Positions 7,072-33,174 of a stretch of 64,000 bases of DNA are shown here, piece after piece. The DNA is from a virus. Both the position numbers and the translations under genes were made by a program. The notes under the pieces are model-generated. The model did no database searches. It was not told the origin of the DNA and saw nothing but the letters and a program-made list of their open reading frames with translations. The stretch lies in IMG/VR virus record IMGVR_UViG_3300030109_004085, positions 1 to 64,000 of that record, one strand, 5' to 3'. Positions within the stretch are counted from its first letter, which is position 1, and the number at the start of each line of letters is the position of its first letter.

Positions 7072-7746
7072 TTATCTTCTTCGCTTGGGGGGGACATCCA
7101 CGCTCATTAGAGCATCTAATGCGTCGCGTTCTGGGGTGCCGGGAGTAGCAGCACGACCGACAGGAACATTTCTAGCTGGACGACTGTCAGCGTCGGACTT
7201 GGCTCTATCAAACATATCCTTACCTAAGTCCATAGTCTTCTTCTCAACGTATGTTAGAAGTGACTCAAGGTTTTCTGTGTTTGATCTTCCTTTAACTTCC
7301 AAAGCGGCGTCTTGAGAATTCTTAAACATTCCAATCCACTCTTCCACCCTGTCCATAAGCATAGGATTTGGCTTATTCATCTTTGTTTCGCCTGGGAACA
7401 TGAAACCAAACAAACTATCCAGAAGGTTACCCTCATCGTCCTCTTGTCTTAAACTAAAGATCAACTCTCGATTTGTGACATCTGGATATAGAATATCTAC
7501 GAGGCTCTCGGCGCGGCGACGATCTTCCTTGGTGGCTTTCGAGCCGCGCATGGCACGATCTCGGAGTTTATCGCGCATAGCTCGGACGTCAACTTTCTTG
7601 GTTTCTGCCCCGGCGGCAGCGCGTTTCATCGCCTCTCTTTCACCCGGCTCAAGCATACGCGTTGTTCCCGGGTCTTCCTGCTCCGCAAGAATATTATGCA
7701 GTTCCTCTGTGATGATTCGCTTAAGCTTCGACTTCGTTATTTTCAT
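7072..7746 (-). CDS. putative internal head protein with MKITKxxLxxIIxEE leader
   Basis: N-terminus MKITKSKLKRIITEELHNILAE; late motif upstream. Confidence 0.55.
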   Translation of the reverse strand: MKITKSKLKRIITEELHNILAEQEDPGTTRMLEPGEREAMKRAAAGAETKKVDVRAMRDKLRDRAMRGSKATKEDRRRAESLVDILYPDVTNRELIFSLRQEDDEGNLLDSLFGFMFPGETKMNKPNPMLMDRVEEWIGMFKNSQDAALEVKGRSNTENLESLLTYVEKKTMDLGKDMFDRAKSDADSRPARNVPVGRAATPGTPERDALDALMSVDVPPKRRR

Positions 7747-8098
7747 TGGGTTTTTCCTCTTCAGTAATTAGTCCATATCTCTCTTGTTCGCCGTCGTCAT
7801 ATGTAATAATCGTGCGATTGCCGGGATGCGGCTTGATATGAACAGTGATGAAATCGTTCATCGAATCAAAAATAGCAATAGAACCCTTCGGTCGAGGATA
7901 TAACCAGTGTGCGATACACTGACCCGTTGCTAGTACAACGCCTTCAATAACTACTCCTTCACCCGACACTCCCGATTCGTCCGCTTGCCGCGCAACCGTG
8001 AATGTCTGAATGCCGCGGGGACATAGACGAGAGGGTTTCTTAGGTATTAACTCCTCAGCGGGAGTTTGTTCTTCTTCAGTGGTAGTTTCATCGCTCAT
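7721..8098 (-). CDS. conserved phage hypothetical protein
   Basis: DESGVSG.G.V.EGV motif. Confidence 0.6.
   Translation of the reverse strand: MSDETTTEEEQTPAEELIPKKPSRLCPRGIQTFTVARQADESGVSGEGVVIEGVVLATGQCIAHWLYPRPKGSIAIFDSMNDFITVHIKPHPGNRTIITYDDGEQERYGLITEEEKPNENNEVEA
7765..7772 (-). promoter_or_regulatory. putative late promoter ACTAATTA
   Basis: Member of recurrent (A)CTAHTTA motif. Confidence 0.5.
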
Positions 8099-8471
8099 TT
8101 TTTAAAATCCAATCGAATGCTTCTATCAAATTTGGAGTCGTCTGATAATCCTCTATACTATCTCTAGTGACCCACTCAAAATCGTCATGCTCAACACCAA
8201 TCCGTACGGTGCCGCTATGGTGGCCACAATAATATATGTCAACGACTTCATTACTAAATTCTTTTAGACAAACTAGATCAGATATATCAATATCCAAATC
8301 AGTCTCTTCTTTCGTCTCTCTAATCACGGCGCCCGGAGAATTTTCTCCGGAGTCGATTCTGCCTCCGGGTAAGCCCCACTTTCCGGGCATCCACCAAGCT
8401 TTTGTCGTCCTTTTTAAGATTAGAACTCGATCTTGCTCGTCCAGAATTAAGACTGCTGCGTTTCCTTTCAT
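8088..8471 (-). CDS. NUDIX hydrolase
   Basis: PGGRIDSGE....AVIRETKEETDL Nudix box. Confidence 0.9.
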   Translation of the reverse strand: MKGNAAVLILDEQDRVLILKRTTKAWWMPGKWGLPGGRIDSGENSPGAVIRETKEETDLDIDISDLVCLKEFSNEVVDIYYCGHHSGTVRIGVEHDDFEWVTRDSIEDYQTTPNLIEAFDWILKNER

Positions 8472-8494
8472 GTTTTTCCTGATCCTTATTTTAA

Positions 8495-10513
8495 TTACTG
8501 ATCTAAACTAAGAGCCTGATCGTATGCTTTGATATACACATCGTGTAGTTTCTGAATAGCATTGGATCTTCGCAGCATCTTAAACGCGAGATTCTCGGGA
8601 GAGAAGATGCCAGCTTTTTCCAATCCTGTTTGTCGCATTGTTTTGATCTTCTCTTTCAGACTAGCCGCAGCCTCAAGTGCTGCATTGTGATCTCCATCAT
8701 ACAGGATGGATGCCACCTTGTCAACCCCTCTTTCAATATCAGCTGCTTTTTTCCGAGCGGTTTTCTTGTCAATGAAGGGCTTCACTTTGTTTGGCTTCAC
8801 GAGCCACTTATCGTTCATTAAAGAATATACGCCCGTTGAAACATGTGGCTCGCTTTCGTCCTGAACATAAAGCTCAACCTCGTGTCCCTTGACTTTTATA
8901 TCGTGGGTTCTGTTCCAGTTGGCACGAACTGCGTCAAAGAAACGCTTAACCAACTCTTCATTCTCGTTAACTTCTTTGAAGTCTATCAGGATATGTAAAT
9001 CAATGTCAGAAAACTTTGACCAGTTATAGTTCGCTAAAGACCCTGTAAGGATAATATCTTTAATCTCGGCGTCTAAATCTAAACGCTCAACGAATTCATC
9101 AACAATATCCATCAAAGCAGCTTTAACCCCAGGTCGGATTCTCTCTTCACCGTCCCAGATTTTTTGCTGGAACTCTGGCTGCATCTCAAATGTTGCTAGA
9201 TCCTCTTCATTGCCTACGGAAATTAGAATATCCTCGCGTAAACGGTCAAAGCGGCTGAGATCTTTGTTGGTGTATCGTGGCTTGCGTTTTTGCTTTGTAA
9301 CCTGTACATACTTGTCGGCGCCTTGCAGGGATGCGGTGGTGTCTTTTGAATCCTTTTTATAAATCTTTGTAAGATGACGCTTGTTCTTGACATAATCTTT
9401 CATTGATTCTTTTGATTCTAGGTCGCTAACTGGTATAAAACCAGCCTCAGCCATATGGCGCGCAAGGTTATCTATGTCTGTTACACCAGCTTCATAAGCG
9501 TCGTACCAATCATCAATTGAGGAGTCTGCTTCTTTCTTTTCAACATCATCTCGGCTATCGTGGTAATACTTCCATACTGCCGCAGCATCGTCGGAGACAC
9601 TGTTATCATCTGCTTTTAGTCCTCTGCTGCTCTCTGACGCTATCTCTAGTGCCACATCATACAGCAAAGGTCCGAAGCCATCTCTGGCCTTTACAGTAGC
9701 AACTTTATAGGTTCCCTTGAACGGATCTCCGGAAGAACGGTGTGCCTCCAGCACGCCGTATACGTCGATACCAGCCTCCATACGATCTAAATCGTCCGCA
9801 ACCAAAGGAGCGTTAGGATTGTCCTTCATCGCGTAATACACCTTGTATTTCATTGGCATCTGCTGAAGATCAACGGCAACCACAACCCCTTCGGGTAGGT
9901 CGGCGGCAGTCTTCATCGCTTCGTCAAGGATAGCCTCTTCTAACCCACCGACGGCGCCGGGTGGTGCTGATTCAAAGTCAGGCGAGTCACTTACGTTTTT
10001 GTATCCACCCTTTCTCTGAGGTCCTTTGGAAGTAAGATCTTTGAAATCCTTTTTCAAATCTGACTTATGTTTTGCAGACTGATAATAATCACCCTCCGAT
10101 ACATTCTGGACTCTCTTGGTGTATGAACCGGGACCGTAGAAAGCTTTTCTTCTTTGTTTAGGTTTGCGTTCCTTGTATCTCAAGACCGAAACACCCTTGA
10201 GTCTAGCGATGAGCTTTACAACTCGCTTCATCATTAGTTCTTTGGACGTGTCTCGTGGACGACGGACGTGAACTTTGAGCGTGGAAAGATAAGTGTTGCC
10301 TAAATCTTTCTGAACACCTCCCTTTTCTCTCTCAATGAGAGTAACAGTCAGAACCTCTGGAAGGGCGCGGATGTCGTTTTTAGTCTCGTCGCGGGAGCCG
10401 CCACGATTCTTGTCCATTGATATCAGAACAGTAAAGTTAAACGTGTCCTGAAAGTATGCAGGATCTTTAGCTTCCTCTAGGAAGTCTTTAAAGGTTTGAA
10501 GTTCGCGTTTCAT
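8495..10513 (-). CDS. multidomain protein: small N-domain + GNAT-like domain + Pol-beta-family nucleotidyltransferase
   Basis: GFGPLLYD...SVSDDAAAVW (GNAT-like); TGSLANY...SDIDLH...VELY (GS, DxD, third acidic residue). Confidence 0.7.
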   Translation of the reverse strand: MKRELQTFKDFLEEAKDPAYFQDTFNFTVLISMDKNRGGSRDETKNDIRALPEVLTVTLIEREKGGVQKDLGNTYLSTLKVHVRRPRDTSKELMMKRVVKLIARLKGVSVLRYKERKPKQRRKAFYGPGSYTKRVQNVSEGDYYQSAKHKSDLKKDFKDLTSKGPQRKGGYKNVSDSPDFESAPPGAVGGLEEAILDEAMKTAADLPEGVVVAVDLQQMPMKYKVYYAMKDNPNAPLVADDLDRMEAGIDVYGVLEAHRSSGDPFKGTYKVATVKARDGFGPLLYDVALEIASESSRGLKADDNSVSDDAAAVWKYYHDSRDDVEKKEADSSIDDWYDAYEAGVTDIDNLARHMAEAGFIPVSDLESKESMKDYVKNKRHLTKIYKKDSKDTTASLQGADKYVQVTKQKRKPRYTNKDLSRFDRLREDILISVGNEEDLATFEMQPEFQQKIWDGEERIRPGVKAALMDIVDEFVERLDLDAEIKDIILTGSLANYNWSKFSDIDLHILIDFKEVNENEELVKRFFDAVRANWNRTHDIKVKGHEVELYVQDESEPHVSTGVYSLMNDKWLVKPNKVKPFIDKKTARKKAADIERGVDKVASILYDGDHNAALEAAASLKEKIKTMRQTGLEKAGIFSPENLAFKMLRRSNAIQKLHDVYIKAYDQALSLDQ

Positions 10514-11251
10514 CTATATAAATAGTTCGCCGTACTCAATAAGTGCGCGTGTTTCTTCCGGACATAGAACTTGATACCAGTGAGAACCTACAACAGATTC
10601 TAAACGCTGTGCGAGAGGCCAATCATTTCCGCCGGGTATGTTCTTATCCCCAACAAAAATCATCTCAACATCATCGCCGTGCAGCTCTCTTAGTTTTTCC
10701 ACCACTTGTCCTTTATTTTTGCCTTTTGGATAGATATCTACCGAGATCGAACCGCCAATTGAAACCTCTAGTTCTGGGTATGTTTCGCCAATATATGCGA
10801 CAATGTCTTCTCGTTCAAGTGTCCTCTTATCCCATCGCTCATAAGCCTCTCTCATATTCTTGTTGGCATTTCTTCCAACTGTAGAGAAATTAATCATACC
10901 GGGTCTTTTTTCAATATGATTACCTTTCTTAGAAAGCCATTGAGAGTTGTCTAAGTATAACTCTAAGTCTGAAATAAATTCTTCACTAGGACTGAAGACA
11001 TTGCTATAAACAATCTGTCCTTCCTGTCTAAACACATTCCCCGAGCACGTAAATACACCTAGACAAGAACGTATAAGATCTTCGCCTAGTTGCTCTCGTG
11101 TCTTTGAGATGTCCGAGCCTGTGACCAAATATACTTTCTTGCCACCGGTGACCCATGACATAAACACATCTTCAATTTCTGTCTTGATTTTTTGGCGGGG
11201 CTCAGTTAACGTCCCATCAACATCAAATAGGTATATTCTTTCAGGCATCAC
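10514..11251 (-). CDS. HAD-IIB phosphomannomutase (eukaryote-type PMM/Sec53 family)
   Basis: FDVDGTLT.PR, E.R.GMINFS..GR, SIGG.IS.D..P.G..K, FVGDK...GGND. Confidence 0.85.
   Translation of the reverse strand: MMPERIYLFDVDGTLTEPRQKIKTEIEDVFMSWVTGGKKVYLVTGSDISKTREQLGEDLIRSCLGVFTCSGNVFRQEGQIVYSNVFSPSEEFISDLELYLDNSQWLSKKGNHIEKRPGMINFSTVGRNANKNMREAYERWDKRTLEREDIVAYIGETYPELEVSIGGSISVDIYPKGKNKGQVVEKLRELHGDDVEMIFVGDKNIPGGNDWPLAQRLESVVGSHWYQVLCPEETRALIEYGELFI
10519..10526 (-). promoter_or_regulatory. putative late promoter ACTATTTA (leaderless)
   Basis: Motif 5 nt before ATG of the 672-aa gene. Confidence 0.6.
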
Positions 11252-11724: not shown

Positions 11725-12762
11725 TTAACTACCGGCTGAATCGTCATCATCACCGGCGCTGTCGTCATCATCACCGGCATCATGATCAATAACATATCCA
11801 ATTTCCACTAATGCACCCTCGTAAGGCACCACCAGGAATTCAATGCTGTTTGTAGCAGCGTTATACACCCAGTCTGTGTCAGCCATCGGCACAGTATCTT
11901 CAAAAACAATCAACGTATCCTCAATAGGTGTGTAGGTCAGCGGCCACTCTTCGTAGGGGTCGACCTGTGAGGATGCAGCGGCTACACCGGGGGACCAATC
12001 TTCTTCGCAAATGTCAACCACCACACCACTGAATGCGTCTGTGGCGTCCATGTATCTGTCTCCCACAAAAGTAGCAGATACCCCTCCGTCGCAAATAGTG
12101 TCTGCTGGGTCAACGTTTACAATGCTCGCCATGAAGACAGATTGTCTTTGGTTACCGTACCACTGAATAAACTCTTGAAGACCGGCGTTGGTTGAAGTGA
12201 ATTGGGAACTACTTTGTTCATCTTCATCGCTAACAAATACTACCAACAGGGCGGCATCATTGCGTAGCCACGTTTGGTTGTAAGAGTTGAGAGCAACATA
12301 ACTGTGTAGCGCGTCGAAGCCTGCCTCTCGATAAGACGGGAGTCCGATGAGGGTGTTATAGGCTGCCTCAGCATCAGCCACCGTATCTCCCGGAACCAAT
12401 GGGAATATGGCTTGCTGTTGTGCCTGCATGTAGTCAGTTGTAGTAATCCCCAAACGCCAACCTACTGCCGGTAGGGCACTCATCATCTGACCAATACCAT
12501 CGATTACTGCTTGATTAAACGTATTCATTGAGCCCGATTGGTCAATAAGCCAAATAATGTCGACGCCATCAACTGTGAAAGGTTGTTCAAACGAATCAAC
12601 CCAAACATCGCCACCCTCTCCTGGAATGTCAATGTAAACAGTTTCTCCCGGGATTTCAACGTAGACTGTTTCACCTGGATTCTGCGAGTAGATTGTGTAA
12701 TCTCCTTCGCATCCGAAAACCGTCAAACAAACAAGAAATACTAGTGCAAATCTACTAAGCAT
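11725..12762 (-). CDS. vWA-domain lipoprotein with C-terminal GDDDDSA repeats
   Basis: Lipobox VFGC; MIDAS DIIWLIDQSGSM; VFVSDEDEQS; tail GDDDDSAGDDDDSAGS. Confidence 0.75.
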   Translation of the reverse strand: MLSRFALVFLVCLTVFGCEGDYTIYSQNPGETVYVEIPGETVYIDIPGEGGDVWVDSFEQPFTVDGVDIIWLIDQSGSMNTFNQAVIDGIGQMMSALPAVGWRLGITTTDYMQAQQQAIFPLVPGDTVADAEAAYNTLIGLPSYREAGFDALHSYVALNSYNQTWLRNDAALLVVFVSDEDEQSSSQFTSTNAGLQEFIQWYGNQRQSVFMASIVNVDPADTICDGGVSATFVGDRYMDATDAFSGVVVDICEEDWSPGVAAASSQVDPYEEWPLTYTPIEDTLIVFEDTVPMADTDWVYNAATNSIEFLVVPYEGALVEIGYVIDHDAGDDDDSAGDDDDSAGS

Positions 12763-12764
12763 TT

Positions 12765-13601
12765 TTAATCCCTCAACCCACCTCTTCTCGGAGCAGCAGC
12801 GCCAGGAATAGATTTCATCTCCCGCACTGGAACATCAGAGGATAGAATTCTTACTTTTAATAACTCAAGATCAATTTGACTAATGGGGGCAATCCAAACA
12901 ATCTCCTCCAGCGGGATACGACCGCCGCCGCCGAAGCGCCCAACGTCAATTCCCGACACACAGCCAAGATATCTGCCTGACTGGTCAAATACTCCGGAGC
13001 CAGATGAGCCGAACCACCCGAACATGTTGGATACAATCATGCTGTGCTCTAGGGCTGCTACATATCCTCGGATTGTCAGAAGGTCGTGATGTGATGGAAA
13101 GCCAGTATAAGTTAAGTTTTTTCCAACGAGTCTCTCGTCGTATTTTAATTCTGGTCGGTAACGAATGGCTGTTCTGGTTTCAATCTCAGGAACAACCATA
13201 AAAGCAATGTCAACCCTGTGGTCTGCAAAGATAACCTTGCCTATGACCACTTCACCATCTCGGCCCTCTATGAGCATAGTACTCTCGTTCCGGACAACGT
13301 GAGCAGCCGTTGCGACGATGCGGCGGCCATAGGCGACCATGTAAGTACCAGAGCCATGACCACCCTGTAAAAGCGAACGGACTTTTACAGCTGCCTGTCT
13401 GGTTCTTTTTTCTGTTAATGTAAGGTTAAGGGCGTCAATGACTTCCAGAACTCGTCCGATAGAGTTCCGTACTTCAACTGTACGCTGTGTTTGAATAATA
13501 TCCGGATTTAAGTTTGAGTTAGAATTTGGTAAGACCGGTCCAGTACAACTTACCAAAAGTAAAGAAGCTATTATTATAAAGTTTTTAATCCACCTAGACA
13601 C
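12765..13601 (-). CDS. trypsin-like serine protease lipoprotein
   Basis: Lipobox LVSC; TAAHV (His), DIA (Asp), GSSGSG (Ser). Confidence 0.8.
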   Translation of the reverse strand: MSRWIKNFIIIASLLLVSCTGPVLPNSNSNLNPDIIQTQRTVEVRNSIGRVLEVIDALNLTLTEKRTRQAAVKVRSLLQGGHGSGTYMVAYGRRIVATAAHVVRNESTMLIEGRDGEVVIGKVIFADHRVDIAFMVVPEIETRTAIRYRPELKYDERLVGKNLTYTGFPSHHDLLTIRGYVAALEHSMIVSNMFGWFGSSGSGVFDQSGRYLGCVSGIDVGRFGGGGRIPLEEIVWIAPISQIDLELLKVRILSSDVPVREMKSIPGAAAPRRGGLRD

Positions 13602-13770: not shown

Positions 13771-15411
13771 TTATTTTATAATTTTTGCCCAGGAGCCAAA
13801 AACCTTGGACTCTTGGAAGGGAAGAGTTTGTTGCCCTGCCTCTTCTTCTTGGTCGCGCTTCATCTGGCGATCCTCTTCGCCGGCAATGTCTCGATACACG
13901 CCGAGTGCCTCTAATCTCTCCTGAACACCTTCCCAGAAACCGTTGTAATCAAAATCTGCTTCTTCGGGCGCAGCTGTCGTGCTTATCAGATATTCGGAGA
14001 CATCTTGCATTTCGTCTAGATAGTTGTTTAGGCGAGCTAGCTCTTCCGCCACATCCTCTGGTTCGTCTGGATCATCTGGTTCAAAACTATCTACCCACTC
14101 CATTTCAATACGGAGCATCGCGGCTTGCGAATCTTGTACGCCGCGCGGAAACACATCAACGCTGACAATGTTGGGGTTGGGAGTGAGGGTGTCGTAGCCA
14201 ATCCTCTGCGCATCCTGGCGAATCTCGTAACGCAAACGAGTGGTCTCTTCCTGTACAATAATATCTTTCACAGGCCAGAACGCTTGGTGCTTCACAAGGA
14301 AGCTCACTGCGAGGGATCCCATTGAGGGCCAGTCCACTTCCTGGCTTGTCTGGGAGTCGGACTCAAAGCCGGGAGCATACTGTTCTAACAGTTCATTGGC
14401 TTCTGTAATCCATGAGTCCTCAAACTTGATATCGGGGTGCTTCTGTTTAAGATATTCCAGCATCTCTATAAAACCGACGCTGTCAGAACTATGCGTTCCG
14501 TCCTCGTCAAACTTCTCTACGCCCGCGTTCTCAAGGAACCAATCAATGTAGGGCCACAAATCTTCGGTAGGAGCTTTGTTAGCTTTGCCTTTAACTTGAT
14601 ATACAACACCGTCAGCAAATTCCAGAGTAACCATTGGTTTAATGCTGCGGCGCTTCTCTCCGCTGCGGAGGGAGTAGAGCATCCCCTGGTCGGCGCGACC
14701 ACAATGTCCCATCTTCTTGCCTTCAAAATCACAAGCTCTGCTGCGGATATCATACCAGAAGTAGCCATTATCAAAGGTGTGAATAACTTGATCTTCTGCT
14801 TTGGCCGGACTAGTCAAAACATCTCGGGCTATCTCACTTGCAGTGCGGAGGAAGCGTTCCTGGTTCGTACCAATCCCCTGGCGTAGTTCGTCGTAGAAAG
14901 CTGGATCTTCTGCCAGCAGCGTCATAATGGGAACAATGTATCCCTGGAGCGCGCGAACGCCCTGAGTCGCTCTATATTCTAAAAACGAATCTAATTGCTT
15001 AATCAGCATGTCGGGAGCACCGCGCTTTTTCAGCATCTTTCGGGCGCTCTTTCTAAGAGATTTAAGATCCGCCAGTCCAGGGGCTCCCCGTACGCCGGAA
15101 TGGTTGATATACCACTCGCTAAAGAATTTGACGGTATTGCTCCAGGCTTCTTCTGCTTCGGGGGTATCGGGCCACCGGTCACGTCCAATTATTTCTTCAA
15201 TGATAGTCTTGTGGACGCTGGGGCTGTAGAAGTTCCTACTCTTAACCGCTTTTACAAGAGTGCCAATCCAAGTCAGATGTTTGTTGCTGACCGGACCGTA
15301 CTCATTGTTCATCTGCCTTAAGATAAACGCAACTTCAGAGGGGAGGCCAATATCCTCGACCCCTTCTTGAAGTAGATAATCTTTCCATTTGTTAGTTTGA
15401 CGCAAATACAT
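13771..15411 (-). CDS. putative virion cargo protein with PcfJ-like domain
   Basis: EGKKMGHC...LYSLR...VTLE...QVKGKAN..P; late motif 6 nt before ATG. Confidence 0.55.
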   Translation of the reverse strand: MYLRQTNKWKDYLLQEGVEDIGLPSEVAFILRQMNNEYGPVSNKHLTWIGTLVKAVKSRNFYSPSVHKTIIEEIIGRDRWPDTPEAEEAWSNTVKFFSEWYINHSGVRGAPGLADLKSLRKSARKMLKKRGAPDMLIKQLDSFLEYRATQGVRALQGYIVPIMTLLAEDPAFYDELRQGIGTNQERFLRTASEIARDVLTSPAKAEDQVIHTFDNGYFWYDIRSRACDFEGKKMGHCGRADQGMLYSLRSGEKRRSIKPMVTLEFADGVVYQVKGKANKAPTEDLWPYIDWFLENAGVEKFDEDGTHSSDSVGFIEMLEYLKQKHPDIKFEDSWITEANELLEQYAPGFESDSQTSQEVDWPSMGSLAVSFLVKHQAFWPVKDIIVQEETTRLRYEIRQDAQRIGYDTLTPNPNIVSVDVFPRGVQDSQAAMLRIEMEWVDSFEPDDPDEPEDVAEELARLNNYLDEMQDVSEYLISTTAAPEEADFDYNGFWEGVQERLEALGVYRDIAGEEDRQMKRDQEEEAGQQTLPFQESKVFGSWAKIIK

Positions 15412-15417: not shown

Positions 15418-15425
15418 TAAGTAGT
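15418..15425 (-). promoter_or_regulatory. putative late promoter ACTACTTA (leaderless)
   Basis: Recurrent motif, 6 nt before ATG. Confidence 0.55.
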
Positions 15426-15433: not shown

Positions 15434-15835
15434 CTACTTTCCGCTTTGTTTGGTTTCGGGCAGTGAGGCTGGCTCAACGCGGCTGTAGTCATCAGCCAAG
15501 CGAACCACATCACCTAACTCGGGGGTGCTTACTTCGACTAGTCGAACATCTCCCATTTCCGCACAAAAGCGGTGAACGGTGCCCGGTGATACATGAAAGA
15601 TGTCACCAGGATCCATTACATGGCGTATAATCTCAGAGTTCTCCTCTGACGGACCCTCTTCGCAGATCAGCTGTCCATCTAGAACCATGATAGTTTCTTC
15701 TTTAGTGTTATGATACTGTCGCGACAGGCGATGACCTTTCTTAATAAACAGTATCTTTCCCGCGTATCGGGAGGCTTTAGCCCAGAGAAGTTCGTGTCCC
15801 CACGGCTTCTCGAACCGGTTAGCAGTTGTAATCAT
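15434..15835 (-). CDS. cupin, mannose-6-phosphate isomerase type II C-terminal-like
   Basis: KPWG, K.L.I..G.RLS.QYH..K.E, PG..HR, EVSTP...D..RL.DDY.R. Confidence 0.8.
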   Translation of the reverse strand: MITTANRFEKPWGHELLWAKASRYAGKILFIKKGHRLSRQYHNTKEETIMVLDGQLICEEGPSEENSEIIRHVMDPGDIFHVSPGTVHRFCAEMGDVRLVEVSTPELGDVVRLADDYSRVEPASLPETKQSGK

Positions 15836-16716: not shown

Positions 16717-17001
16717 CTAGGGGAATAAGACTGTCCAGACAGTTTTGACCAATAAACCGGCAACGGAGCCGCCAACCAACCACATCGCTCTAGTATTAGC
16801 CGCTTTCCAAGTTTCAAGCTGAATAATACGAATATCCAAATCTCTTAATCGAGCAAACAATCCCGAATCAGGATTGTAAACAGCTTCTTTAATCTTGCTA
16901 ATATTATCAGCTAATTCTTCTTGTTTGTCAAGTAAAATCTCCAACTTTGTGGACATTTCAACCAGCATTACAGTTAGTTTCTTCTCGTTATCGTCGGTCA
17001 T
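16717..17001 (-). CDS. coiled-coil plus C-terminal TM protein (XhlA/holin-like architecture)
   Basis: Heptad N-part, hydrophobic C-terminus, late motif CTATTTA at 17025-17031. Confidence 0.5.
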   Translation of the reverse strand: MTDDNEKKLTVMLVEMSTKLEILLDKQEELADNISKIKEAVYNPDSGLFARLRDLDIRIIQLETWKAANTRAMWLVGGSVAGLLVKTVWTVLFP

Positions 17002-17033
17002 TATTGGTCACCTCCAGACACCAGTAAATAGAA

Positions 17034-18608
17034 CTAAATCTCTATAATGGCGTGTGAAGTTGTGATTAATGTTCCAGCAGCAGAGGCAGCATTTTGAAGT
17101 GCTGTCCGCGTAACCTTAACGGGATCTATAATGCCTTCTTCAAGCATGTCAACCATTTCATCGGTGCGGAAGTTATAGCCTAGATTGCTTTCAGCCGCTT
17201 CGATCTGAGCAAGAATCAAGTCGGGGGATAACCCACAGTTCTGTGCCATCTGTCGTAGTGGAGCTTTAACTGCGTCGCGTACTATTTCAATGCCAAACAC
17301 CTGATCTTCGTTCTCTGCTTCCACCATTAGAAGGTTGTTAGATACTCGAACCAATGTAACACCACCGCCGGGAATAATGCCTTCTTGCTGTGCAGACTTA
17401 ACCGCTTCAAGCGCGTCTTCAATACGATGCTTCTTCTCAATCATCTCTACTTCAGTTGCCGCACCCACCTTAATGACTGCTACCCCAGAGGCCAACTTGG
17501 TGATGCGTTCCTGAATATTGTCACATTCACGCATGTCATCGGTCTGCATCAACTCAGTCTTCAGCAAATCAATGCGACGATCAATCTCTTCAAAGTCGCC
17601 TTTGCCGCCAATCACAGTAGTATTACCCTTTGTAATGTCGATGGAACGACACTGACCAAAGTGTTGTAGCTTAATGTCTTTTAAGCCAACCGTGCCGCCC
17701 GTAGAGACGAACTCCGCACCTGTTGAAAGTGCTAGGTCGGACAGAATGTTACGACGCCTCTCGCCGTAGAAGGGAGCCTTTACAGCAACAATCTTCAAAG
17801 ATCCCCTAACAGTATTCATAATAAGGGCTGCGAGTGCCTGACCTTCAATTTCTTCGGCAACAATAACAAGGGGACGACCGTCACGAGATACAATCTCCAA
17901 CGCTGGGAGAATCTGGTCTACTGATTCAATCCGATTATCAGTTACAAGAAGAAGCGGGGAATCATAGTGAACCGCACCACGACGTTCGTCGGTTACGAAA
18001 GCAGACGCAGCATAGCCAGATTCAACTCGGAAACCTTCAATAACATCAAGTGAAGTATCGATCGTCTTGGCATCTTGAATGGTAATAGAGCCATCCTTAC
18101 CAGCCTTATCAACAGCAGTGGCGATTAACTTACCAATGGTTCTATCATTGTTGGCCGAGATGGTTGCGATGTTCTCAACATCGTCAAGCGTTTCAATGTG
18201 TTGTGCGTTGCTTTTAAGTTGTCCAACCAAAGCCTCCACAGCCAAATCAATGCCTCGCTTTAATTCTACCGGAGACGCACCAGCAGTGATATAACGCTGC
18301 GCCTTATTAAGGATGGCGCGCGCGAGGACAGTCGCTGTAGTGGTTCCGTCACCAGCCATAGTGTTGGTCTGGGAGGTTGCCTGCTTTAGAATCTGTGCAG
18401 CAGCGTTTTCAAACTCATCGTCCAGATGAACAAACGCAGAGACAGTTACACCGTCCTTCGTAATAATGGGATCATTTCCTTTTTGATGTAGGATAACATT
18501 GCGACCCTTCGGTCCTAAAGTTGCCGCAACATTGTCGGCAAGCTTATTAACTCCGTCCAGAACCTTTTGACTCAGGCCCTGTCGGTCTTCAAATACACAT
18601 TTGGGCAT
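17034..18608 (-). CDS. groEL: chaperonin GroEL
   Basis: TLGPKGRNV, ITKDGVTV, AGDGTTTATVL, GIIPGGG, IDPVKVTR; no GGM tail. Confidence 0.97.
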   Translation of the reverse strand: MPKCVFEDRQGLSQKVLDGVNKLADNVAATLGPKGRNVILHQKGNDPIITKDGVTVSAFVHLDDEFENAAAQILKQATSQTNTMAGDGTTTATVLARAILNKAQRYITAGASPVELKRGIDLAVEALVGQLKSNAQHIETLDDVENIATISANNDRTIGKLIATAVDKAGKDGSITIQDAKTIDTSLDVIEGFRVESGYAASAFVTDERRGAVHYDSPLLLVTDNRIESVDQILPALEIVSRDGRPLVIVAEEIEGQALAALIMNTVRGSLKIVAVKAPFYGERRRNILSDLALSTGAEFVSTGGTVGLKDIKLQHFGQCRSIDITKGNTTVIGGKGDFEEIDRRIDLLKTELMQTDDMRECDNIQERITKLASGVAVIKVGAATEVEMIEKKHRIEDALEAVKSAQQEGIIPGGGVTLVRVSNNLLMVEAENEDQVFGIEIVRDAVKAPLRQMAQNCGLSPDLILAQIEAAESNLGYNFRTDEMVDMLEEGIIDPVKVTRTALQNAASAAGTLITTSHAIIEI

Positions 18609-18634: not shown

Positions 18635-18662
18635 ATTATAACATACGATTCGTATATGTCAA
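18635..18662 (-). promoter_or_regulatory. consensus sigma70 promoter for groEL
   Basis: TTGACA-N16-TATAAT; spacer contains palindrome ATACGA-n-TCGTAT. Confidence 0.8.
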
Positions 18663-18665: not shown

Positions 18666-20375
18666 TTATTTATCACTTTGAAGGTCTTTGGTCCGTTCTC
18701 CAATAGACTTGGATGCATCAATTGCTGTTTGAGCCTCTTGATCATTCTGTAGCCCATTACCAAAGTAACTTTGAATGTTTGTGGTTAGAACCTTTAGATC
18801 CGAAAAGATTGCGAAGACTGAAGTGTCAATAATCTCGGAGATCTTCTGCATAAGATTCACAACCTGTTCTTGACCAATCTCAATGGAACCCAGCATAACC
18901 TTATCCTGGTTGGCGGGGAATATCTCCTTGCCAGCAGCAAGTGTTTTAATATCCAAAATACGAGGCTCGGTCAGTTCAAACTGGTCTGTATTAACATAGC
19001 CGTGGCTGAGCAAGAGAGCTTTCTTTTTCTGCTCCGGGGTAAGATTGTTGTAGGCTACGATCGAGTCTTTGGCGCCTTCTTGTTTTTTGTCTTTAGCGTA
19101 AGCCCCGCCGGCTCGACCCATCAGTTCTTGGCGAGCCGCGAGGTTTGCATTGGTTAATTCCGTAACCTCATTGTAGGCGGCTACAACAATTTCGTTGTAA
19201 ATTCTCAAAGCGGTGACGATGCGGTCTCCGTATGTTTCGATCCATTCTGCTCTCGCAGCCTTGGTAGTGGGAGCCTTCGGCGCCGGTTCAGACAAAAGGC
19301 CCATCCTGTAGGCTAAAGCAGCCTCCCGTGCTCCAGTGGGATTGTCCACTGCGCGCGGCATCAGTGGGTCGCGACCGAAGCGTTTGGGAGTTTTCAACTG
19401 CGAGGTGTCCTCTGGAAGTCCAACGAGCTTGACTGCATTTACCAATATATCTTGGGAGATATCGGACGCATCTCCCAACTCTTTCACCCGATCGTGGTAA
19501 AGTTTAAGAACGTCCTCGGCTTTGGGAGGAGGCGGGATCTTCACATCGGCCACGCTATCAGGATCATTTATAAATCCTTGAGGCAGCCTCATAAGACCTG
19601 GGTTTTCCAGACCGCCATTATACATGAGGTTGGCTACGTTATCTAACGTGAAGTCGAAGCGATAAAAGTCTAGACGCCCTGAACCTTGGTCGTCCAGTTT
19701 CTTTGTCACAGCTACATACTGCATCTTTTCGTACTTTCGAAGATCGTTTACCAAATCAGTGAAACTACCGCCAACCTTTAGGGAGCCTGCGGTGTATAAT
19801 TTAAGACTGATAGGAACTTTTTCTCCACCCACATTGGCGGTGAGGTCAGCAATTGTTCCTTCGCCAGTAGCAATCTGTGCGCCGCCCAAAAGCACCCCCA
19901 GAAAAGCTTCAAATGAGAAACCAGCCGAGGAAGCGTTGAAGTGGGCGACAATCTTTGTTAGGGTCTTATAGAAAGTTAGATAACCTAAAGCTTTTGAAAT
20001 ACGTTCCTTGTCAGTATCTCCAAAGAAACCCTGTTCAAGAAGTTGAACCGGGTCGGTCTGATAGAACTTTGCTAGACCCTCAACTTTGTCTTTTAGGTCA
20101 TCTCCTGCGATATCATCTAGGAACTGTTCAAGCTGCTTTCTCTGAGGGCTCGGGATATCAGCCCCTCCTTCAACTGTCTGAACAGAGGACCAGGGAATTT
20201 CCGAGATTGGAATATCGGGGACACCATCAAAGGTTAAAGTGATTGCCTCTCTTTGTTCTCTGATTAAGGCTTCGGCTTGTTCTCCACCTACTAATAGACT
20301 TAGAACTTCTTTAATTATGCTTTCAGTCTCGTCTTTTTTGGAGTAGAAACTCTCCACCAGTGTATCAATATTCAT
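18666..20375 (-). CDS. large late protein with possible PD-(D/E)xK-like nuclease core
   Basis: GFSFEAFL...IADL...PISLKLY; CTAATTA motif at 20399-20405. Confidence 0.5.
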   Translation of the reverse strand: MNIDTLVESFYSKKDETESIIKEVLSLLVGGEQAEALIREQREAITLTFDGVPDIPISEIPWSSVQTVEGGADIPSPQRKQLEQFLDDIAGDDLKDKVEGLAKFYQTDPVQLLEQGFFGDTDKERISKALGYLTFYKTLTKIVAHFNASSAGFSFEAFLGVLLGGAQIATGEGTIADLTANVGGEKVPISLKLYTAGSLKVGGSFTDLVNDLRKYEKMQYVAVTKKLDDQGSGRLDFYRFDFTLDNVANLMYNGGLENPGLMRLPQGFINDPDSVADVKIPPPPKAEDVLKLYHDRVKELGDASDISQDILVNAVKLVGLPEDTSQLKTPKRFGRDPLMPRAVDNPTGAREAALAYRMGLLSEPAPKAPTTKAARAEWIETYGDRIVTALRIYNEIVVAAYNEVTELTNANLAARQELMGRAGGAYAKDKKQEGAKDSIVAYNNLTPEQKKKALLLSHGYVNTDQFELTEPRILDIKTLAAGKEIFPANQDKVMLGSIEIGQEQVVNLMQKISEIIDTSVFAIFSDLKVLTTNIQSYFGNGLQNDQEAQTAIDASKSIGERTKDLQSDK

Positions 20376-20401
20376 TTTAAATCCTCGGGAACTAATACTA
20401 A

Positions 20402-21046
20402 TTAGATGATTTCATCAGCAAGACCCATTTCAATTGCCTCTTCAGCAGAGAAATATTCGTCTATATTCTTAGAAAACATGTTATGAATCTCGCCAACAGA
20501 AAGATTGGAGTTCTCGGCAATCACCCGAACCATATTGTCTTCCATTAAGCGCATTTCATCGTGGCTTGCCTTCATATCGGCAGTGGATCCCATACCGCCC
20601 GATGAACAACGGTGCAACATAATGCGAACATTGCGCGTCACGAAACGCTTACCCTTTGTTCCCGAGACCAATAAAGGCACGCCAGCAGAGAACACCTTGC
20701 CTGTTCCTAGCGTTGCGATATCGCGGCGTCTCTTCACAATATTCATTATGTCAACAACACCGAACATATCGTAGACAGCACCGCCGCCAGTTGAAATAAG
20801 AAAGTGAACGTCCTCTGGGACTTCCTCTCCTTCTTCTAATGGGTTTGGAAAGACCTTCCCTCCGTTTAACTGAACAAGCCCCATATATAATTCTTGAGTT
20901 GATTCCTCATTTAATTCTCCAACCAAGCCAAGGGTATTGGGTTCTTCGCCATCCTGGCCAGCTGCCATCGCTGCCATAACCATTGCAGCCTGATGCTCAC
21001 AGATCTCCTCTTCTTCATCTGGGGTTTCGTTATTGAAAATTAACAT
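20402..21046 (-). CDS. clpP: ClpP-like protease subunit (copy 1)
   Basis: ISTGGG, FSAG (Ser), IMLH (His), D.YFSAEEA.EMGLAD. Confidence 0.85.
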   Translation of the reverse strand: MLIFNNETPDEEEEICEHQAAMVMAAMAAGQDGEEPNTLGLVGELNEESTQELYMGLVQLNGGKVFPNPLEEGEEVPEDVHFLISTGGGAVYDMFGVVDIMNIVKRRRDIATLGTGKVFSAGVPLLVSGTKGKRFVTRNVRIMLHRCSSGGMGSTADMKASHDEMRLMEDNMVRVIAENSNLSVGEIHNMFSKNIDEYFSAEEAIEMGLADEII

Positions 21047-21498: not shown

Positions 21499-21527
21499 AG
21501 TATACGTTAGGAATTTTGGTTTGTCAA
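21499..21527 (-). promoter_or_regulatory. sigma70-type promoter abutting the terminator
   Basis: TTGACA-N17-TATACT. Confidence 0.75.
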
Positions 21528-21528: not shown

Positions 21529-22239
21529 CTATTTCTTAGTGCTAAGAGCCTCCATAAGAATTCTCTTTGCAACTCTCTTCGTGATGGTCTCCATTAGATC
21601 ATCACCCATCTCGTCTGCATCAGCTGGCTCGTCTGCCATGGCGTCCATAGCATCTGGGGGCTCGTCTGCATCTGCAACCTCGTCAGCGTCAATTTCGACT
21701 TCCTCACCCATTGCGTCTTCAAGGGCGCGCTCAAGGGCTGAAAGGAAATCATCAACTGAAACCATCTTGCCTGCATCTGCGGCTGGCTCCTCAGCTGGTG
21801 CCTCTATCTCTGCATCTACTTCTAGTTCCTCGTCACCGGCAGCATCTTCCATTTCGGCTGCGTCGACTTCCAACTCTGCATGCTCCTCTTCCTCAAGACG
21901 ATCGGCTGGTCCGCGGCCTCTGCCGTGACCTCTTCGTGCGTCCTGTAGACCTCCACCAGCAGCGTCGGTGCGGACTTCATCCATCTCGTCTTCATCTCGT
22001 GCGTGACGCATCTCGTCAAGATCGTCTTCATCACGGCGCATGCCACGCATGCCCTCTTCCATCTCTTCCTCATCCTCACCGCGCATGCGCATTCCTCGAC
22101 CTTCTTCTAGGTCCTCATCAGCGTGCTTCTCTTCGGTAAGACCCTCTACAAAGCCTGGGGTCAAAGGCTCTAGCCTAGCTAGCTTCATGAACTGGCGAAT
22201 CTGTGACTCGCTTAAAATTGTTTTATTCTTTTTGGACAT
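21529..22239 (-). CDS. very acidic scaffold/core-like late protein
   Basis: Repeated (L/M)xE units, RQFMKLARL motif resembling the scaffold C-terminus; ACTATTTA at 22280-22287. Confidence 0.6.
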   Translation of the reverse strand: MSKKNKTILSESQIRQFMKLARLEPLTPGFVEGLTEEKHADEDLEEGRGMRMRGEDEEEMEEGMRGMRRDEDDLDEMRHARDEDEMDEVRTDAAGGGLQDARRGHGRGRGPADRLEEEEHAELEVDAAEMEDAAGDEELEVDAEIEAPAEEPAADAGKMVSVDDFLSALERALEDAMGEEVEIDADEVADADEPPDAMDAMADEPADADEMGDDLMETITKRVAKRILMEALSTKK

Positions 22240-22278: not shown

Positions 22279-22521
22279 TTAAATAGTATTTTGATCTGAT
22301 AATGTCTTTTTTAATTTAACAAGTGATTCATCGACTAATTGTTTTGCCCTTACAATGCTCACGCCGTGTCGCTCTCCTATCTGTTTAAGGGTCATAGCGC
22401 CGTGTTTATAGACGGCGATATCAGTACAATTTAAATCCTCTTCGTAATCTAAGTGCAACCTGCATTCACTTTGCGAGCAGGGTACGTGATGTATATAGCA
22501 TTTGCTGGCACATTCTTTCAT
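22279..22521 (-). CDS. stand-alone sigma70 region-4 HTH protein with N-terminal Cys cluster
   Basis: MTLKQIGERHGVSIVRAKQLVDESLVKL resembles TLEEVG..F.VTRERIRQIE..AL.KL; five Cys upstream. Confidence 0.65.
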   Translation of the reverse strand: MKECASKCYIHHVPCSQSECRLHLDYEEDLNCTDIAVYKHGAMTLKQIGERHGVSIVRAKQLVDESLVKLKKTLSDQNTI

Positions 22522-24791: not shown

Positions 24792-25509
24792 TATCCCTAA
24801 TCCTTCTGTAGGCTCCAACTGTCTCAGGGAATAGATCCGTAGCGATCTCCAAGCAAGCCTCAGCAACCTTTTGAATCTCCCATTGCGCGCCTTCGTGTGT
24901 GCGAAGGTCAACGAACTTCAAGAGGTTAGATAGATTAACTGTGCCATAGTATTCGGTGTAGAGGTTCTGCGGTAGAATTCCTCTTGCCTGCTCTCGGCAA
25001 ACGCCGGCTTCAATCATCTTGTTATAAAGAGCGAGACAATCCTTATGATGAACCTGCAGCGCATTGCTAACAGATGTTTTATAAAGCTTGTTCTCGCCCG
25101 GAATGTAACAACCGATATCAGGATCGATCAACTCTTCGGCGTTTGATGCTTGTCGGTTTGACTTATGCTGTGTTCTGAAAGCCTTTGGCTCATAGAATCG
25201 GAGATCCACATCAGTATACCGCCGGGATATCTCATTATAAGACCAAGTTCGATGACGGTGATGCTGACTACGAATATATAAAGGTACACAAAGGCGGTAA
25301 GTGACAAGGTTATGCTCCAAAGTTGAGGTATGTCTATGTTTGATTAGATAGTTGATCAGCTTCTTATCTTTGTTATCCAGTTCTTCTTTCTGGACTCCAA
25401 ATGAAACTCTAGCCGAGTTGACGACGGTAAGGTCAGACCCCATATGTGAAACATAATCAACCTTTCCAATACCGTCGCCGTATAAATCAATAGACTTACT
25501 GTAACTCAT
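24784..25509 (-). CDS. thyX: FAD-dependent thymidylate synthase
   Basis: ARVS, H.S.LEH, RHR..SYNEISRRY, REQAR.ILP, AQWEI. Confidence 0.95.
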   Translation of the reverse strand: MSYSKSIDLYGDGIGKVDYVSHMGSDLTVVNSARVSFGVQKEELDNKDKKLINYLIKHRHTSTLEHNLVTYRLCVPLYIRSQHHRHRTWSYNEISRRYTDVDLRFYEPKAFRTQHKSNRQASNAEELIDPDIGCYIPGENKLYKTSVSNALQVHHKDCLALYNKMIEAGVCREQARGILPQNLYTEYYGTVNLSNLLKFVDLRTHEGAQWEIQKVAEACLEIATDLFPETVGAYRRIRDNG

Positions 25510-26072
25510 TAAATGATCTCGTCAATCACACCCAACTTAAGAGCTTCTTCCGCGGACATGTACCAATCAATCTTGTTCTTAAGAATGTCGTTTAACTTCT
25601 TCTTAGAGATGTTGGTCTTTTCCAGGGTAATATCCTCTATCATCTTCTGAAGGCGCTTAGTTTCCTTTAACTTCTCCTCCATGTCCTGAACCTTACCGAT
25701 AAAACCGCTAGAGACCTGATGGTAGAGTGGAGTGGCGAGATTGTATGCAAACCTCTTGTGGCCACAGATTAGAATCATGAAACCACAAGACATAGCTGCA
25801 CCAGTTACAATAGTGTGGATTGGAGTTTCAGATCTCTCCATAACCCCGAGCAATCCAAAGCACTGATACACAGCGCCCCCATACGAATCAATGTGTAGCT
25901 TAATTGGTGCCGCCACGTATTCTAGATCGTGAACGGCATACAACTTCTTCAAGTGAGTATCACTGGCATTAATACCGATGATGCTCTGCGTGAGCTTATG
26001 CATTGATTCCTGATTAACTTGTTCAGGAAGATACAGATACCGATCCTTTGGCAATGGTAGTGAAGGAGGCAT
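25509..26072 (-). CDS. clpP: ClpP-like protease subunit (copy 2)
   Basis: IDSYGG, AMSCG (Ser), YHQ (His), DWYMSAEEALKLG. Confidence 0.85.
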   Translation of the reverse strand: MPPSLPLPKDRYLYLPEQVNQESMHKLTQSIIGINASDTHLKKLYAVHDLEYVAAPIKLHIDSYGGAVYQCFGLLGVMERSETPIHTIVTGAAMSCGFMILICGHKRFAYNLATPLYHQVSSGFIGKVQDMEEKLKETKRLQKMIEDITLEKTNISKKKLNDILKNKIDWYMSAEEALKLGVIDEII

Positions 26073-32576: not shown

Positions 32577-32582
32577 ACTACT

Positions 32583-32611
32583 AATGTAGCATAACCGGGC
32601 TTACAAGTCAA
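32583..32611 (-). promoter_or_regulatory. sigma70-type promoter (leaderless)
   Basis: TTGACT-N17-TACATT, ATG 6 nt downstream. Confidence 0.65.
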
Positions 32612-32619
32612 GTATTATT

Positions 32620-32853
32620 TTATAGAATGTTTTTTAGCGCTTCCTCAAGGAATGCGCGGAGAACATTTATATCTACATTTTGCTGGGCATCACTGATGGC
32701 ACTGTCAAGTATCTCAAGAGTTCCGATTTCTGCTTCGTTTCTGCCGTATCTTTCGCCGGCAGTTCGCATATCGGGCTCTTCCTCTTCGGATACAGCACCA
32801 AGCCCCAACTCTTCCTTAATAATCTCTTGTAATCTTGCTTTTGTGATTTTCAT
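32620..32853 (-). CDS. putative internal head protein with MKITK leader
   Basis: MKITKARLQEIIKEEL...AVSEE. Confidence 0.6.
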   Translation of the reverse strand: MKITKARLQEIIKEELGLGAVSEEEEPDMRTAGERYGRNEAEIGTLEILDSAISDAQQNVDINVLRAFLEEALKNIL

Positions 32854-32865
32854 TTTATGCCCCTA

Positions 32866-33174
32866 CTATAGATTAGCTATATATTCATCAAAGAACTTAT
32901 CACCCATGCTTCGAACGGAGGCAAAATCGGCGCCCATGGCACCTTGTTTTCCGAGAGCTTGATAAATCTTCTTGCCGGAATACTTGGTCGCCTCTACATA
33001 GTCATCGTATGGGATACTGTTTGGATCGAGGCCGCGGGCGGCAAGGTACTCATCGTATTCACGCATCTCGTCGCGGTCGACAAGAGGAAGTTCCGTCTGT
33101 CCTTCAAGTTCCTCGGACACAGCTGCAATCTCTTCCTTAATAATCTCTCTTAGTTTTGCTTTTGTAATTCTCAT
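32866..33174 (-). CDS. putative internal head protein with MRITK leader
   Basis: MRITKAKLREIIKEEI.AVSEE; start at 33174 after AGGAG and ACTATTTA (33204-33211). Confidence 0.6.
   Translation of the reverse strand: MRITKAKLREIIKEEIAAVSEELEGQTELPLVDRDEMREYDEYLAARGLDPNSIPYDDYVEATKYSGKKIYQALGKQGAMGADFASVRSMGDKFFDEYIANL

Follow-up and report, generated by a model that had tools for sequence, protein, structure and literature searches.

Conserved N-terminal leaders on dispersed late genes of an uncultured marine T4-like phage as candidate tags for loading capsid cargo

The window analysed here is a stretch of 64,000 nucleotides (nt) of viral DNA (IMG/VR record IMGVR_UViG_3300030109_004085), which comprises the first 64 kb of a single virus contig of 83,881 bp with nearly all of its genes on the minus strand. 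Scattered through it are genes, named here by coordinate (Table 1), which mostly lie behind a motif shared with structural genes and begin with short, conserved N-terminal leaders. One leader class (class 1) recurs on largely unrelated bodies in related viral contigs, where it clusters with head genes, while a second (class 2) resembles the capsid targeting sequence (CTS) carried by internal proteins of T4. The most far-reaching reading, to which a probability of roughly one in three is assigned, is that in a marine T4-like clade the interchangeable leader classes form an address code by which rapidly exchanged capsid cargo, including a cleavable polyprotein with GNAT-like and nucleotidyltransferase domains, would be loaded for co-injection, and that the leader would also serve as a 5' recombination handle for cassette swaps. 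In the more limited reading favoured here, it is judged probable, by analogy, that the class 1 leader, and probably that of gene 8495, act as head-loading tags of the T4 type, and the bodies behind the leaders are only tentatively considered to be injected effectors.

The class 1 leader is a predicted segment of 22 residues with the consensus MKITKxQLKQIIKEE(L/I)xx(L/V)LxE, carried by genes 7072 (MKITKSKLKRIITEE), 32620 (MKITKARLQEIIKEE), 32866 (start at 33174; MRITKAKLREIIKEE) and 71941. All peptide strings quoted in the initial annotation of this DNA were found at the genes to which they had been assigned, and its three MKITK/MRITK leaders proved to be members of a sharply defined family. 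When a position-specific scoring matrix (PSSM) of leader positions 6-22 was scanned over the 84-kb genome, exactly four sites, all at the starts of open reading frames (ORFs), scored 17-30 bits, with the next best of approximately 56,000 positions reaching 0.1 bits. The fourth leader gene, like the protease gene it adjoins, lies outside the window. The MRITK start of gene 32866 at 33174 had been placed correctly, because the upstream part of the longer ORF overlaps a GroES-like gene in another frame; a canonical motif and a Shine-Dalgarno sequence furthermore precede this start. The GroES-like gene (33215-33493, minus strand), located just upstream of the MRITK gene, encodes 92 amino acids (aa) with a full-length, sub-threshold match to Cpn10/GroES (E 0.004). 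The leaders in the window end in ILAE (7072) or AVSE (32620 and 32866), and cleavage is likely to fall after residue 21-22 and not, as first proposed, solely after IIKEE. Eight aligned orthologs of 7072 are nearly invariant over residues 1-22, which are followed by an acidic stretch rich in insertions and deletions and then by a body of 47-85 % identity. The ortholog of 32620 in L060 is 70 % identical (L-numbers denote loci of related viral contigs; a position in L001 plus 64,000 gives the genome position), and in L161 the same upstream DNA and 23-residue leader as at 7072 precede an unrelated body of 494 aa.

A degenerate DNA pattern for the leader, searched against IMG/VR, identified at least 120 loci holding at least 184 leader ORFs, and the figures given below derive from the matches listed. 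These leader ORFs are 46-375 aa in length (median 105) and often form tandem arrays, with arrays of up to five MKITK-leader genes observed in L163, L165, L118 and L119. Conservation extends to residues that the search pattern left free, namely Q7, K/R9, K13 and a hydrophobic one at position 16. In 108/162 distinct ORFs, compared to 15/162 in a control window, there is a second [LIVM]xE whose E lies at residues 19-24, and the composition turns linker-like after it, from which it follows that the leader is some 22 residues in length with a protease-type site at its end. At every conserved leader residue the synonymous codons are free to vary, which indicates that selection acts on the leader peptide and rules out DNA-level conservation as the cause of the MKITK leader. 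The sequences behind the leader fall into 141 BLAST clusters from 166 proteins, 123 of these being singletons. The initial proposal of modular tags stands for the MKITK leader, which is portable on unrelated bodies and clusters with head genes in the relatives, but fails for gene 18666, whose leader is confined to one family. Searches of Pfam and PHROGs with the candidates and ten large cargo proteins of the relatives yielded almost nothing, and a full-text literature search for the peptide strings returned nothing relevant. The k-mers enriched upstream of the relatives' leader genes (TATGAATGGATTAGC and similar) were considered as promoters and rejected, as they are the conserved 3' ends of upstream genes.

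Comparison of all phage genes against the leader loci by tblastn revealed portal and terminase homologs in approximately 50 loci and S77 protease homologs in 26, with the portal/terminase homologs situated within a few kb of the leader genes and co-oriented with them. Four hot spots for leader genes could be distinguished: from an SbcC-like gene to g80961, with arrays of up to five genes; around g79173 and the terminase gene; from a small membrane-protein gene to the protease gene; and from the protease gene to g71048. Where an array lies behind the SbcC-like gene, its first leader gene overlaps the SbcC-like stop codon (..GCAACATGA). The S77 protease is encoded in four of the five large leader-bearing contigs in which the leader locus lies elsewhere, the fifth contig being 27 % complete.

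The class 2 leader (aromatic, K/R, any residue, aromatic, L, any residue, E) resembles the T4 CTS in sequence. ORFs starting with MK(K/L)L(L/M)(T/E)EWRKFLxE are common in the relatives, and a relaxed class 2 pattern is 23x commoner per residue at N-termini than internally (15 vs 6 matches, 1637 ORFs). Within this genome gene 8495 is a close match (MKRELQTFKDFLEE/A; a slash before the final residue marks the candidate cut), with 13771 (MYLRQTNKWKDYLLQE/G) and 73705 (..KLIMESWRSY..) being loose ones. The likeness of the 8495 leader to the T4 CTS is close: in the T4 record IPII and IPIII begin with MKTYQEFIAE/A and IPI with MKTFKEF.., and the QTFKDFLEE/A of 8495 is close to both the KTFKEF of IPI and the KTYQEFIAE/A of IPIII, so that its core TFKDFLEE/A is very near the experimentally defined CTS, as compared by eye on a peptide too short for statistics. 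The protein has more than 380 full-length orthologs, named 'predicted nucleotidyltransferase' in their sources, and F8, F11, E14 and A15 are invariant among 17 aligned sequences.

The AlphaFold model of 8495 comprises, in order, a helix (residues 2-16), a ferredoxin-like domain (21-117), a disordered linker, a middle domain, a second disordered linker, and a nucleotidyltransferase domain with a helical bundle. In structure searches with the predicted model the ferredoxin-like domain matched the PheRS-beta C-terminal domain (Z 10.3), and a fold search with the whole model gave matches for only two parts, the ferredoxin-like domain at the N-terminus and the helical bundle at the C-terminus. The middle domain (approximately residues 200-405), which has no Pfam match, gave a predicted local distance difference test score of 87 when folded alone; all 50 of its top structure matches are GNAT-type acyltransferases, including tRNA-acetylating toxins and the anti-CRISPR acetyltransferase AcrVA5, at Z values of only 5.3-7.1, and the top Foldseek rows are also GNAT (E 0.03-0.5). 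A GNAT-like fold is predicted for this domain with modest certainty. The C-terminal domain is a Pol-beta-type nucleotidyltransferase (NTP_transf_2, PF01909, E 5.6e-5; 23.9 bits with a cut-off of 21), and a family profile search against PDB sequences gave no match. In L006, L049 and L013 the GNAT-like domain forms a protein by itself behind a class 2 leader, and the junction ..FVLTE/GMKTAAKLP of these stand-alone proteins aligns with the invariant interdomain linker GGLEExxLDE/AMKTAADLP of 8495. The LDE/AMK linker of 8495 thus matches the leader-body junction of the stand-alone homologs, and overall the protein has the appearance of leader-tagged cargo that has been joined into a polyprotein and carries an internal candidate site for cleavage. 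The nucleotidyltransferase domain likewise stands alone in L048, behind MFQQFWKIFEAAEIE, beside a Nudix gene and inside the head module, and one body family occurs behind both class 1 and class 2 leaders. Among the putative cargo proteins, enzymes as initially suggested were borne out for 8495 only. A Nudix hydrolase gene (8088-8471, minus strand) adjoins 8495, and the nucleotidyltransferase-Nudix pair recurs in the head module of L048.

The machinery for T4-type processing, which had been presumed, is encoded in the form of a gp23-like capsid protein, a gp20-like portal protein (Portal_T4, PF07230, E 4e-79; outside the window, as is the large terminase) and a gp21-like Peptidase_S77 in which the GELDHP and SSRGMGS blocks of T4 gp21 are retained in the alignment. 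The sheath, tube and baseplate hub genes are also T4-like. Both capsid sites quoted initially, LTE/G and LRE/S, are present, and LLRE/S aligns with the end of the T4 gp24 propeptide, INELLRE/S. The scaffold-like protein is five-fold enriched in [LI]xE, with 64 per 1000 residues where the genome averages 13, and its C-terminus, R[WMF]xxLAG[LI]K, is kept in six relatives. The premise that the phage protease would cut after (L/I)-x-E is well founded on these sequence features. The nearest cultured relatives, Flavobacterium phage immuto, Microcystis phage Mel-JY01 and Rhodothermus phage RM378, are distant (36-48 % identity in the capsid and portal proteins), on which grounds the genome is assigned to an uncultured marine 'far-T4' myovirus of 83.9 kb.

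The evidence for late expression is an upstream sequence motif common to structural genes and conserved in relatives. The strict motif CTATTTA occurs in 19 copies on the coding (minus) strand and none on the plus strand, where base composition predicts approximately 7 and 10, respectively. Twelve of the 19 copies precede a start codon by at most 60 nt (binomial p = 2e-10), including those of the sheath, tube and scaffold genes, and a terminator hairpin directly precedes many of the copies ahead of the sheath, tube, scaffold and other structural genes. The claim that the motif is common to the structural genes holds for sheath, tube and scaffold, but the capsid gene has no motif of its own and is located downstream of the scaffold gene. 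The variants CTAATTA/CTACTTA are upstream of starts in 5/12 cases (p = 6e-4). Those at 7072 and 18666 (CTAATTA) and 13771 (CTACTTA) score low against a matrix built from the structural-gene sites, and the variants were accepted because relatives carry CTATTTA at the same sites. At the 7072 site L158 and L159 have CTATTTA and L161 has CTACTTA, while at the identical position before 13771 four relatives have CTATTTA and three CTAATTA, always with TAGTTG-ATG next. The degenerate position H with which the motif had been written is real, as the relatives vary between T, A and C at these two sites. The motif upstream of 21529 (ACTATTTAAA) is identical and equally spaced in 7/7 relatives. That of 18666 is kept in relatives, yet the entire junction between the ClpP-like gene and 18666 is conserved there at the DNA level, and its conservation is thus not independent evidence.

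Most of the seven genes initially placed behind the motif do lie behind it, with the reservations that CTAATTA scores low, that 32620 lacks a separate motif and is transcribed together with 32866, and that the motifs of 8495 and 13771 abut the start, ending 5-6 nt ahead of it. The latter two read CTAYTTATAG, 3-6 nt before the start codon and without a Shine-Dalgarno sequence. The abutment of motif and start is conserved in seven relatives of 13771. The mRNAs of 8495 and 13771 may have no untranslated leader or almost none; alternatively, translation of these genes may be coupled to that of the upstream gene. A strong sigma70-like promoter occurs immediately after each of the cassettes 7072, 18666, 21529 and 32620, and a TTGAC..TATAGT equivalent follows the stop codon in the loci of the 7072 orthologs. 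The order of late motif, gene and early promoter fits late genes having been inserted between early transcription units. The initial list missed gene 16717 (16717-17001, minus strand), which encodes 94 aa behind a canonical CTATTTA (at 17031); its homolog in L038 ends in a transmembrane helix. This gene may start a late operon running to 13771.

Table 1. Coordinates of the leader genes, head genes, late motifs and promoters discussed in the text
Feature	Position (strand)	Length	Description
7072	7072..7746 (-)	224 aa	Residues 1-22 MKITKSKLKRIITEELHNILAE, indel-rich acidic linker, conserved body ending ARNVPVGRAATPGTPER..KRRR
8495	8495..10513 (-)	672 aa	Three-domain protein: T4-CTS-like leader; ferredoxin-like, predicted GNAT-like and nucleotidyltransferase domains
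13771	13771..15411 (-)	546 aa	N-terminus MYLRQTNKWKDYLLQE/G, relaxed class 2 leader
18666	18666..20375 (-)	569 aa	First 28-31 residues (MNIDTLVESFYSKKDETESIIKEVLSLL..) near-invariant, body fast-evolving
21529	21529..22239 (-)	236 aa	Very acidic (77 D+E, 17 M); N-terminus ..ESQIRQFMKLARLEPLTPGFVEGLTE, C-terminus TKRVAKRILMEALS
32620	32620..32853 (-)	77 aa	Starts MKITKARLQEIIKEELGLGAVSE/EEE; 12 nt after 32866
32866	32866..33174 (-)	102 aa	Starts MRITKAKLREIIKEEIAAVSE/E; true start inside a 191-aa ORF
Capsid gene	60291..62027 (-)		T4 gp23-like major capsid protein; phrog_138 E 1e-70; LTE/G at residues 7-9, LLRE/S at residues 58-61
Scaffold gene	62054..63127 (-)	357 aa	Acidic scaffold-like protein; 23 [LI]xE
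71941	71498-71941		Fourth leader gene, MKISEERLKKIIKEE; outside the window, directly downstream of the protease gene
Protease gene	71945-72544		gp21-like prohead protease, Peptidase_S77; PF03420 E 3.4e-30, phrog_207 E 1.5e-57; outside the window
Motif of 7072	7765..7771 (-)		Variant CTAATTA; 25 nt upstream of the start, within the upstream ORF
Motif of 8495	10519..10525 (-)		Canonical CTATTTA; 5 nt before the ATG, within the 3' end of the phosphomannomutase-like gene
Motif of 13771	15418..15424 (-)		Variant CTACTTA, then TAGTTG-ATG; upstream of 13771
Motif of 18666	20399..20405 (-)		Variant CTAATTA; overlaps the ClpP-like gene's stop codon; 30 nt upstream of the start
Motif of 21529	22280..22286 (-)		Canonical ACTATTTAAA; 47 nt upstream; fifth in the genome-wide matrix scan
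Motif of 32866	33204..33210 (-)		Canonical ACTATTTAA, then AAAGGAG; 36 nt upstream of the start at 33174
Promoter after 7072	7035..7063 (-)		Sigma70-like, TTGACA-17-TACTAT; directly 3' of the stop
Promoter after 18666	18635..18662 (-)		Perfect sigma70-like (12/12 matches); directly 3' of the stop; drives the GroEL-like gene
Promoter after 21529	21499..21527 (-)		Sigma70-like (11/12 matches); directly 3' of the stop
Promoter after 32620	32583..32611 (-)		Sigma70-like; 3' of the stop

The three remaining members of the set (13771, 18666 and 21529) are weaker candidates. The 16-residue N-terminus of 13771 is among the best-conserved parts of the protein in seven orthologs (42-70 % identity), and its body is similar to viral PcfJ-like clusters in a language-model search (score 0.95), which serves as a lead only. 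The N-terminus of 18666, MNIDTLVESFYSKKDETESLINEVLSLLxTE, is near-invariant among orthologs that share 28-36 % identity overall, and the distant L128 retains the leader peptide via synonymous changes. Genes of this family are always found downstream of the ClpP-like gene (20402-21046, minus strand). The ClpP 3' end, the intergenic sequence and the first 28 codons share approximately 90 % DNA identity, with the downstream bodies being approximately 30 % identical, so that a sharp mosaic boundary is apparent. A role of the 18666 leader as modular tag was ruled out, as it heads a single protein family only, and judged from sequence the N-terminus is best described as conserved and propeptide-like. 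An atlas search with 18666 gave only unnamed viral clusters and a chance-level restriction-enzyme lead. The 21529 protein contains 42 [LM]xE per 1000 residues (four-fold enriched), and its termini are conserved and its middle variable among seven relatives. The resemblance of its RQFMKLARL to the scaffold C-terminus, pointed out initially, is a loose one (FMKLA(K/R)L against R[WMF]xxLAG[LI]K), and the protein looks more like a scaffold or core component than the cargo it was first taken to be.

In the mechanism proposed, a T4-like scaffold core would build the head, which a gp21-type serine protease would mature by cutting after (L/I)-x-E, and the late genes would supply proteins headed by short amphipathic helices as leaders. 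From the example of T4 IPI-III and Alt we infer that the leader docks its protein onto the scaffold core during prohead assembly, after which the protease would remove the leader at the terminal LxE and the body, retained in the head with the DNA, could enter the cell at infection. Gene 8495 would probably be loaded as a polyprotein. A cassette would consist of CTA(T/A/C)TTA, a leader gene and a sigma70-like promoter restarting early transcription, with the body behind the conserved leader being exchanged between relatives.

The initial description of this system as undescribed was overstated, as the CTS principle is that of T4, where Alt is an example of an enzyme being packaged. The T4 core proteins, internal proteins and Alt carry capsid targeting sequences of 10-20 residues that are removed by gp21 (PMC5694885, PMC3012670), the internal proteins of T-even phages have only the CTS in common (PMC5694885, PMC3012670) and serve as counter-defence cargo (PMC3012670), and the T-even cargo set is already known as diverse (PMC3012670, PMC5694885). 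As in T4, a short N-terminal peptide ending in (L/I)-x-E is found here on otherwise unrelated proteins (class 1 and class 2, not 18666), together with a gp21-type protease, a gp22-like scaffold and a gp23-like capsid protein. The T4 genes ipII, ipIII and ipI, too, lie dispersed between non-structural genes and stand behind late promoters, and the T4 internal proteins resemble the present cargo set in being polymorphic between relatives. Unlike in T4, several leader classes occur in one genome; the leader ORFs number at least 184 on at least 120 viral contigs, in tandem arrays of up to five, and form a hypervariable set found in head-module hot spots as well as in dispersed late cassettes; one putative cargo protein has several domains in 672 aa and a candidate site for internal cleavage; and the hosts are marine. 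Most likely, and by analogy with the established T4 principle, this is a larger and more varied version of a tag for loading a protein into the capsid and then clipping it.

Several observations weigh against this reading. Unlike the T4 CTS, the MKITK leader is 22 residues in length, contains two LxE sites and has no detectable similarity to the T4 CTS, and with the leader PSSM no significant similarity of class 1 to any T4 protein was found, the gp67 segment scoring below 0. Comparison of 25-residue leaders with GenBank phages by tblastn gave no meaningful match, and the relatives are uncultured. An [LIM]xE is present in the first 30 residues of approximately 45 % of all proteins of the genome, so that LxE near the N-terminus, offered initially as evidence, loses its force and the argument rests on leader conservation, modularity and context. 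The residues of 8495 after the putative cut are as conserved as its leader, and conservation thus does not set this leader apart. The start-abutting motifs of 8495 and 13771 are atypical compared to the structural genes. A phmmer search with the 18666 leader against 1.84 billion representatives returned 12 matches, all to one fast-evolving family, and this leader may instead be related to the adjacent ClpP-like gene. Most bodies behind the leaders are furthermore small, of low complexity and without a known domain, and may be core filler rather than effectors.

The last point also speaks for an alternative that is considered unlikely, namely that the leader proteins are prohead core or scaffold accessory proteins like T4 gp67, gp68 and gp22, with the leader as the helix by which they are built into the core and the protease chopping them into fragments that either leave or remain as inert internal peptides, such that no effectors are delivered. 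Besides the short (median 105 aa), acidic or low-complexity and domainless bodies, it would account for the leader gene 71941 and the conserved core gene 71048 adjoining the protease gene, as T4 genes 67 and 68 do, and for the scaffold-like nature of 21529 (acidic, [LM]xE-rich, with a motif resembling the scaffold C-terminus), and T4 core proteins are in fact cleaved into short fragments (PMC5694885). T4 gp67 and gp68 are small, partly acidic and encoded beside the protease, with 71498-71941 and 71048-71497 in a comparable position here, and are built into the core and cleaved at LxE. However, these proteins share no significant sequence similarity with those described here, and the leader family is also dispersed outside the head module and hypervariable. 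Homology of the MKITK leader to T4 gp67 (..DLIKEEKIAIARNFLIE) was suspected by eye and rejected, as its PSSM score is negative and ranks among random segments. Essential core parts are normally conserved, whereas the bodies seen here are hypervariable, being present in some close relatives and missing from others, which is the pattern of the T-even internal proteins (PMC3012670), and 8495 has predicted folded domains of enzyme type.

N-terminal propeptides on head proteins are also known from the giant phages phiKZ, 201phi2-1 and SPN3US, whose S80 proteases are related to gp21. Many of their inner-head proteins have propeptides cut after x-x-E, often at several sites, and the diverged paralogs gp53 and gp54 of SPN3US are identical in their first 15 residues (PMC5694885). 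The giant-phage propeptides are mostly longer than 100 residues and use the motif (S/A/G)-x-E, whereas the leaders described here are 14-31 residues long and the S77 protease is more closely homologous to gp21.

A role of the leader that has nothing to do with the capsid, as a portable peptide for interaction or regulation (for instance a docking helix for a chaperonin or ClpP-like protein, a degradation tag or an oligomerisation helix), is improbable. The phage does encode a GroEL-like, a GroES-like and two ClpP-like proteins, and the 18666 family always follows the ClpP-like gene across a DNA-conserved junction. The class 1 genes nevertheless cluster with portal, terminase and S77 protease genes and not with ClpP or GroEL genes, the leader end carries an S77-type cleavage motif far more often than the control window, and the class 2 leader resembles an experimentally defined T4 CTS. 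That the shared N-termini are the last remnant of a diverged paralogous family with no targeting role, and the late motifs at non-structural genes a matter of chance, is already disfavoured and very improbable: small phage proteins do diverge quickly and CTAATTA and CTACTTA rank low in the matrix scan, but the leader peptide is invariant though its codons vary, conservation falls abruptly past residue 22, the bodies (46-494 aa) comprise folded domains unrelated to one another, with homologous bodies found behind leaders of different classes, and the motifs are enriched upstream of starts (p = 2e-10 strict, p = 6e-4 for the variants) and conserved at orthologous sites.

A GroEL-like chaperonin (17034-18608, minus strand; PF00118, E 1e-67) is encoded together with the GroES-like protein, and the two may form a phage chaperonin pair, comparable to T4 gp31 acting with host GroEL in capsid protein folding. 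Besides the S77 prohead protease there are two ClpP-like genes, the one preceding 18666 (20402-21046) and another at 25509-26072, both on the minus strand. Directly upstream of the 21529 cassette an 80-aa Cys-rich protein (22279-22521, minus strand) matches sigma-70 region 4 (PF04545, E 1.8e-6), and on the basis of this domain could be a late-transcription factor. Two adjacent genes (11725-12762 and 12765-13601, minus strand) have lipoprotein-type N-termini, one with a weak VWA match and the other with a trypsin-like peptidase domain (PF13365, E 5e-13), and homologs of both occur together in L023. The cassettes are also flanked by a phosphomannomutase-like gene (10514-11251, minus strand) and a cupin gene of mannose-6-phosphate-isomerase-like type (15434-15835, minus strand).

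Within the head module, core gene 71048 (71048-71497, minus strand; L001 7048-7497) adjoins the protease gene in 16 relatives, and its product has the N-terminus MKKSELKQLIKPVVKECIxEVLxEEG, which is loosely like the MKITK leader and is not a PSSM match. It may be a resident core protein that is imitated by the portable leaders. Beside it lies a gene for a 73-aa ribosomal protein S21-like protein (genome 70822-71043, minus strand; L001 6822-7043), with S21-like homologs at the same place in L007, L013, L042, L094 and L111.

If the leaders are true capsid-targeting signals, the set of packaged, and possibly injected, proteins of abundant uncultured marine phages would become readable from their genomes, which would provide hundreds of candidate first-minute effectors and counter-defence proteins without known domains, as well as new short tags with which T4-type capsids could be loaded with foreign proteins. 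It would further show the internal-protein strategy of T4 to be an old and widespread one, which is much more elaborate in phages outside the T-even group.

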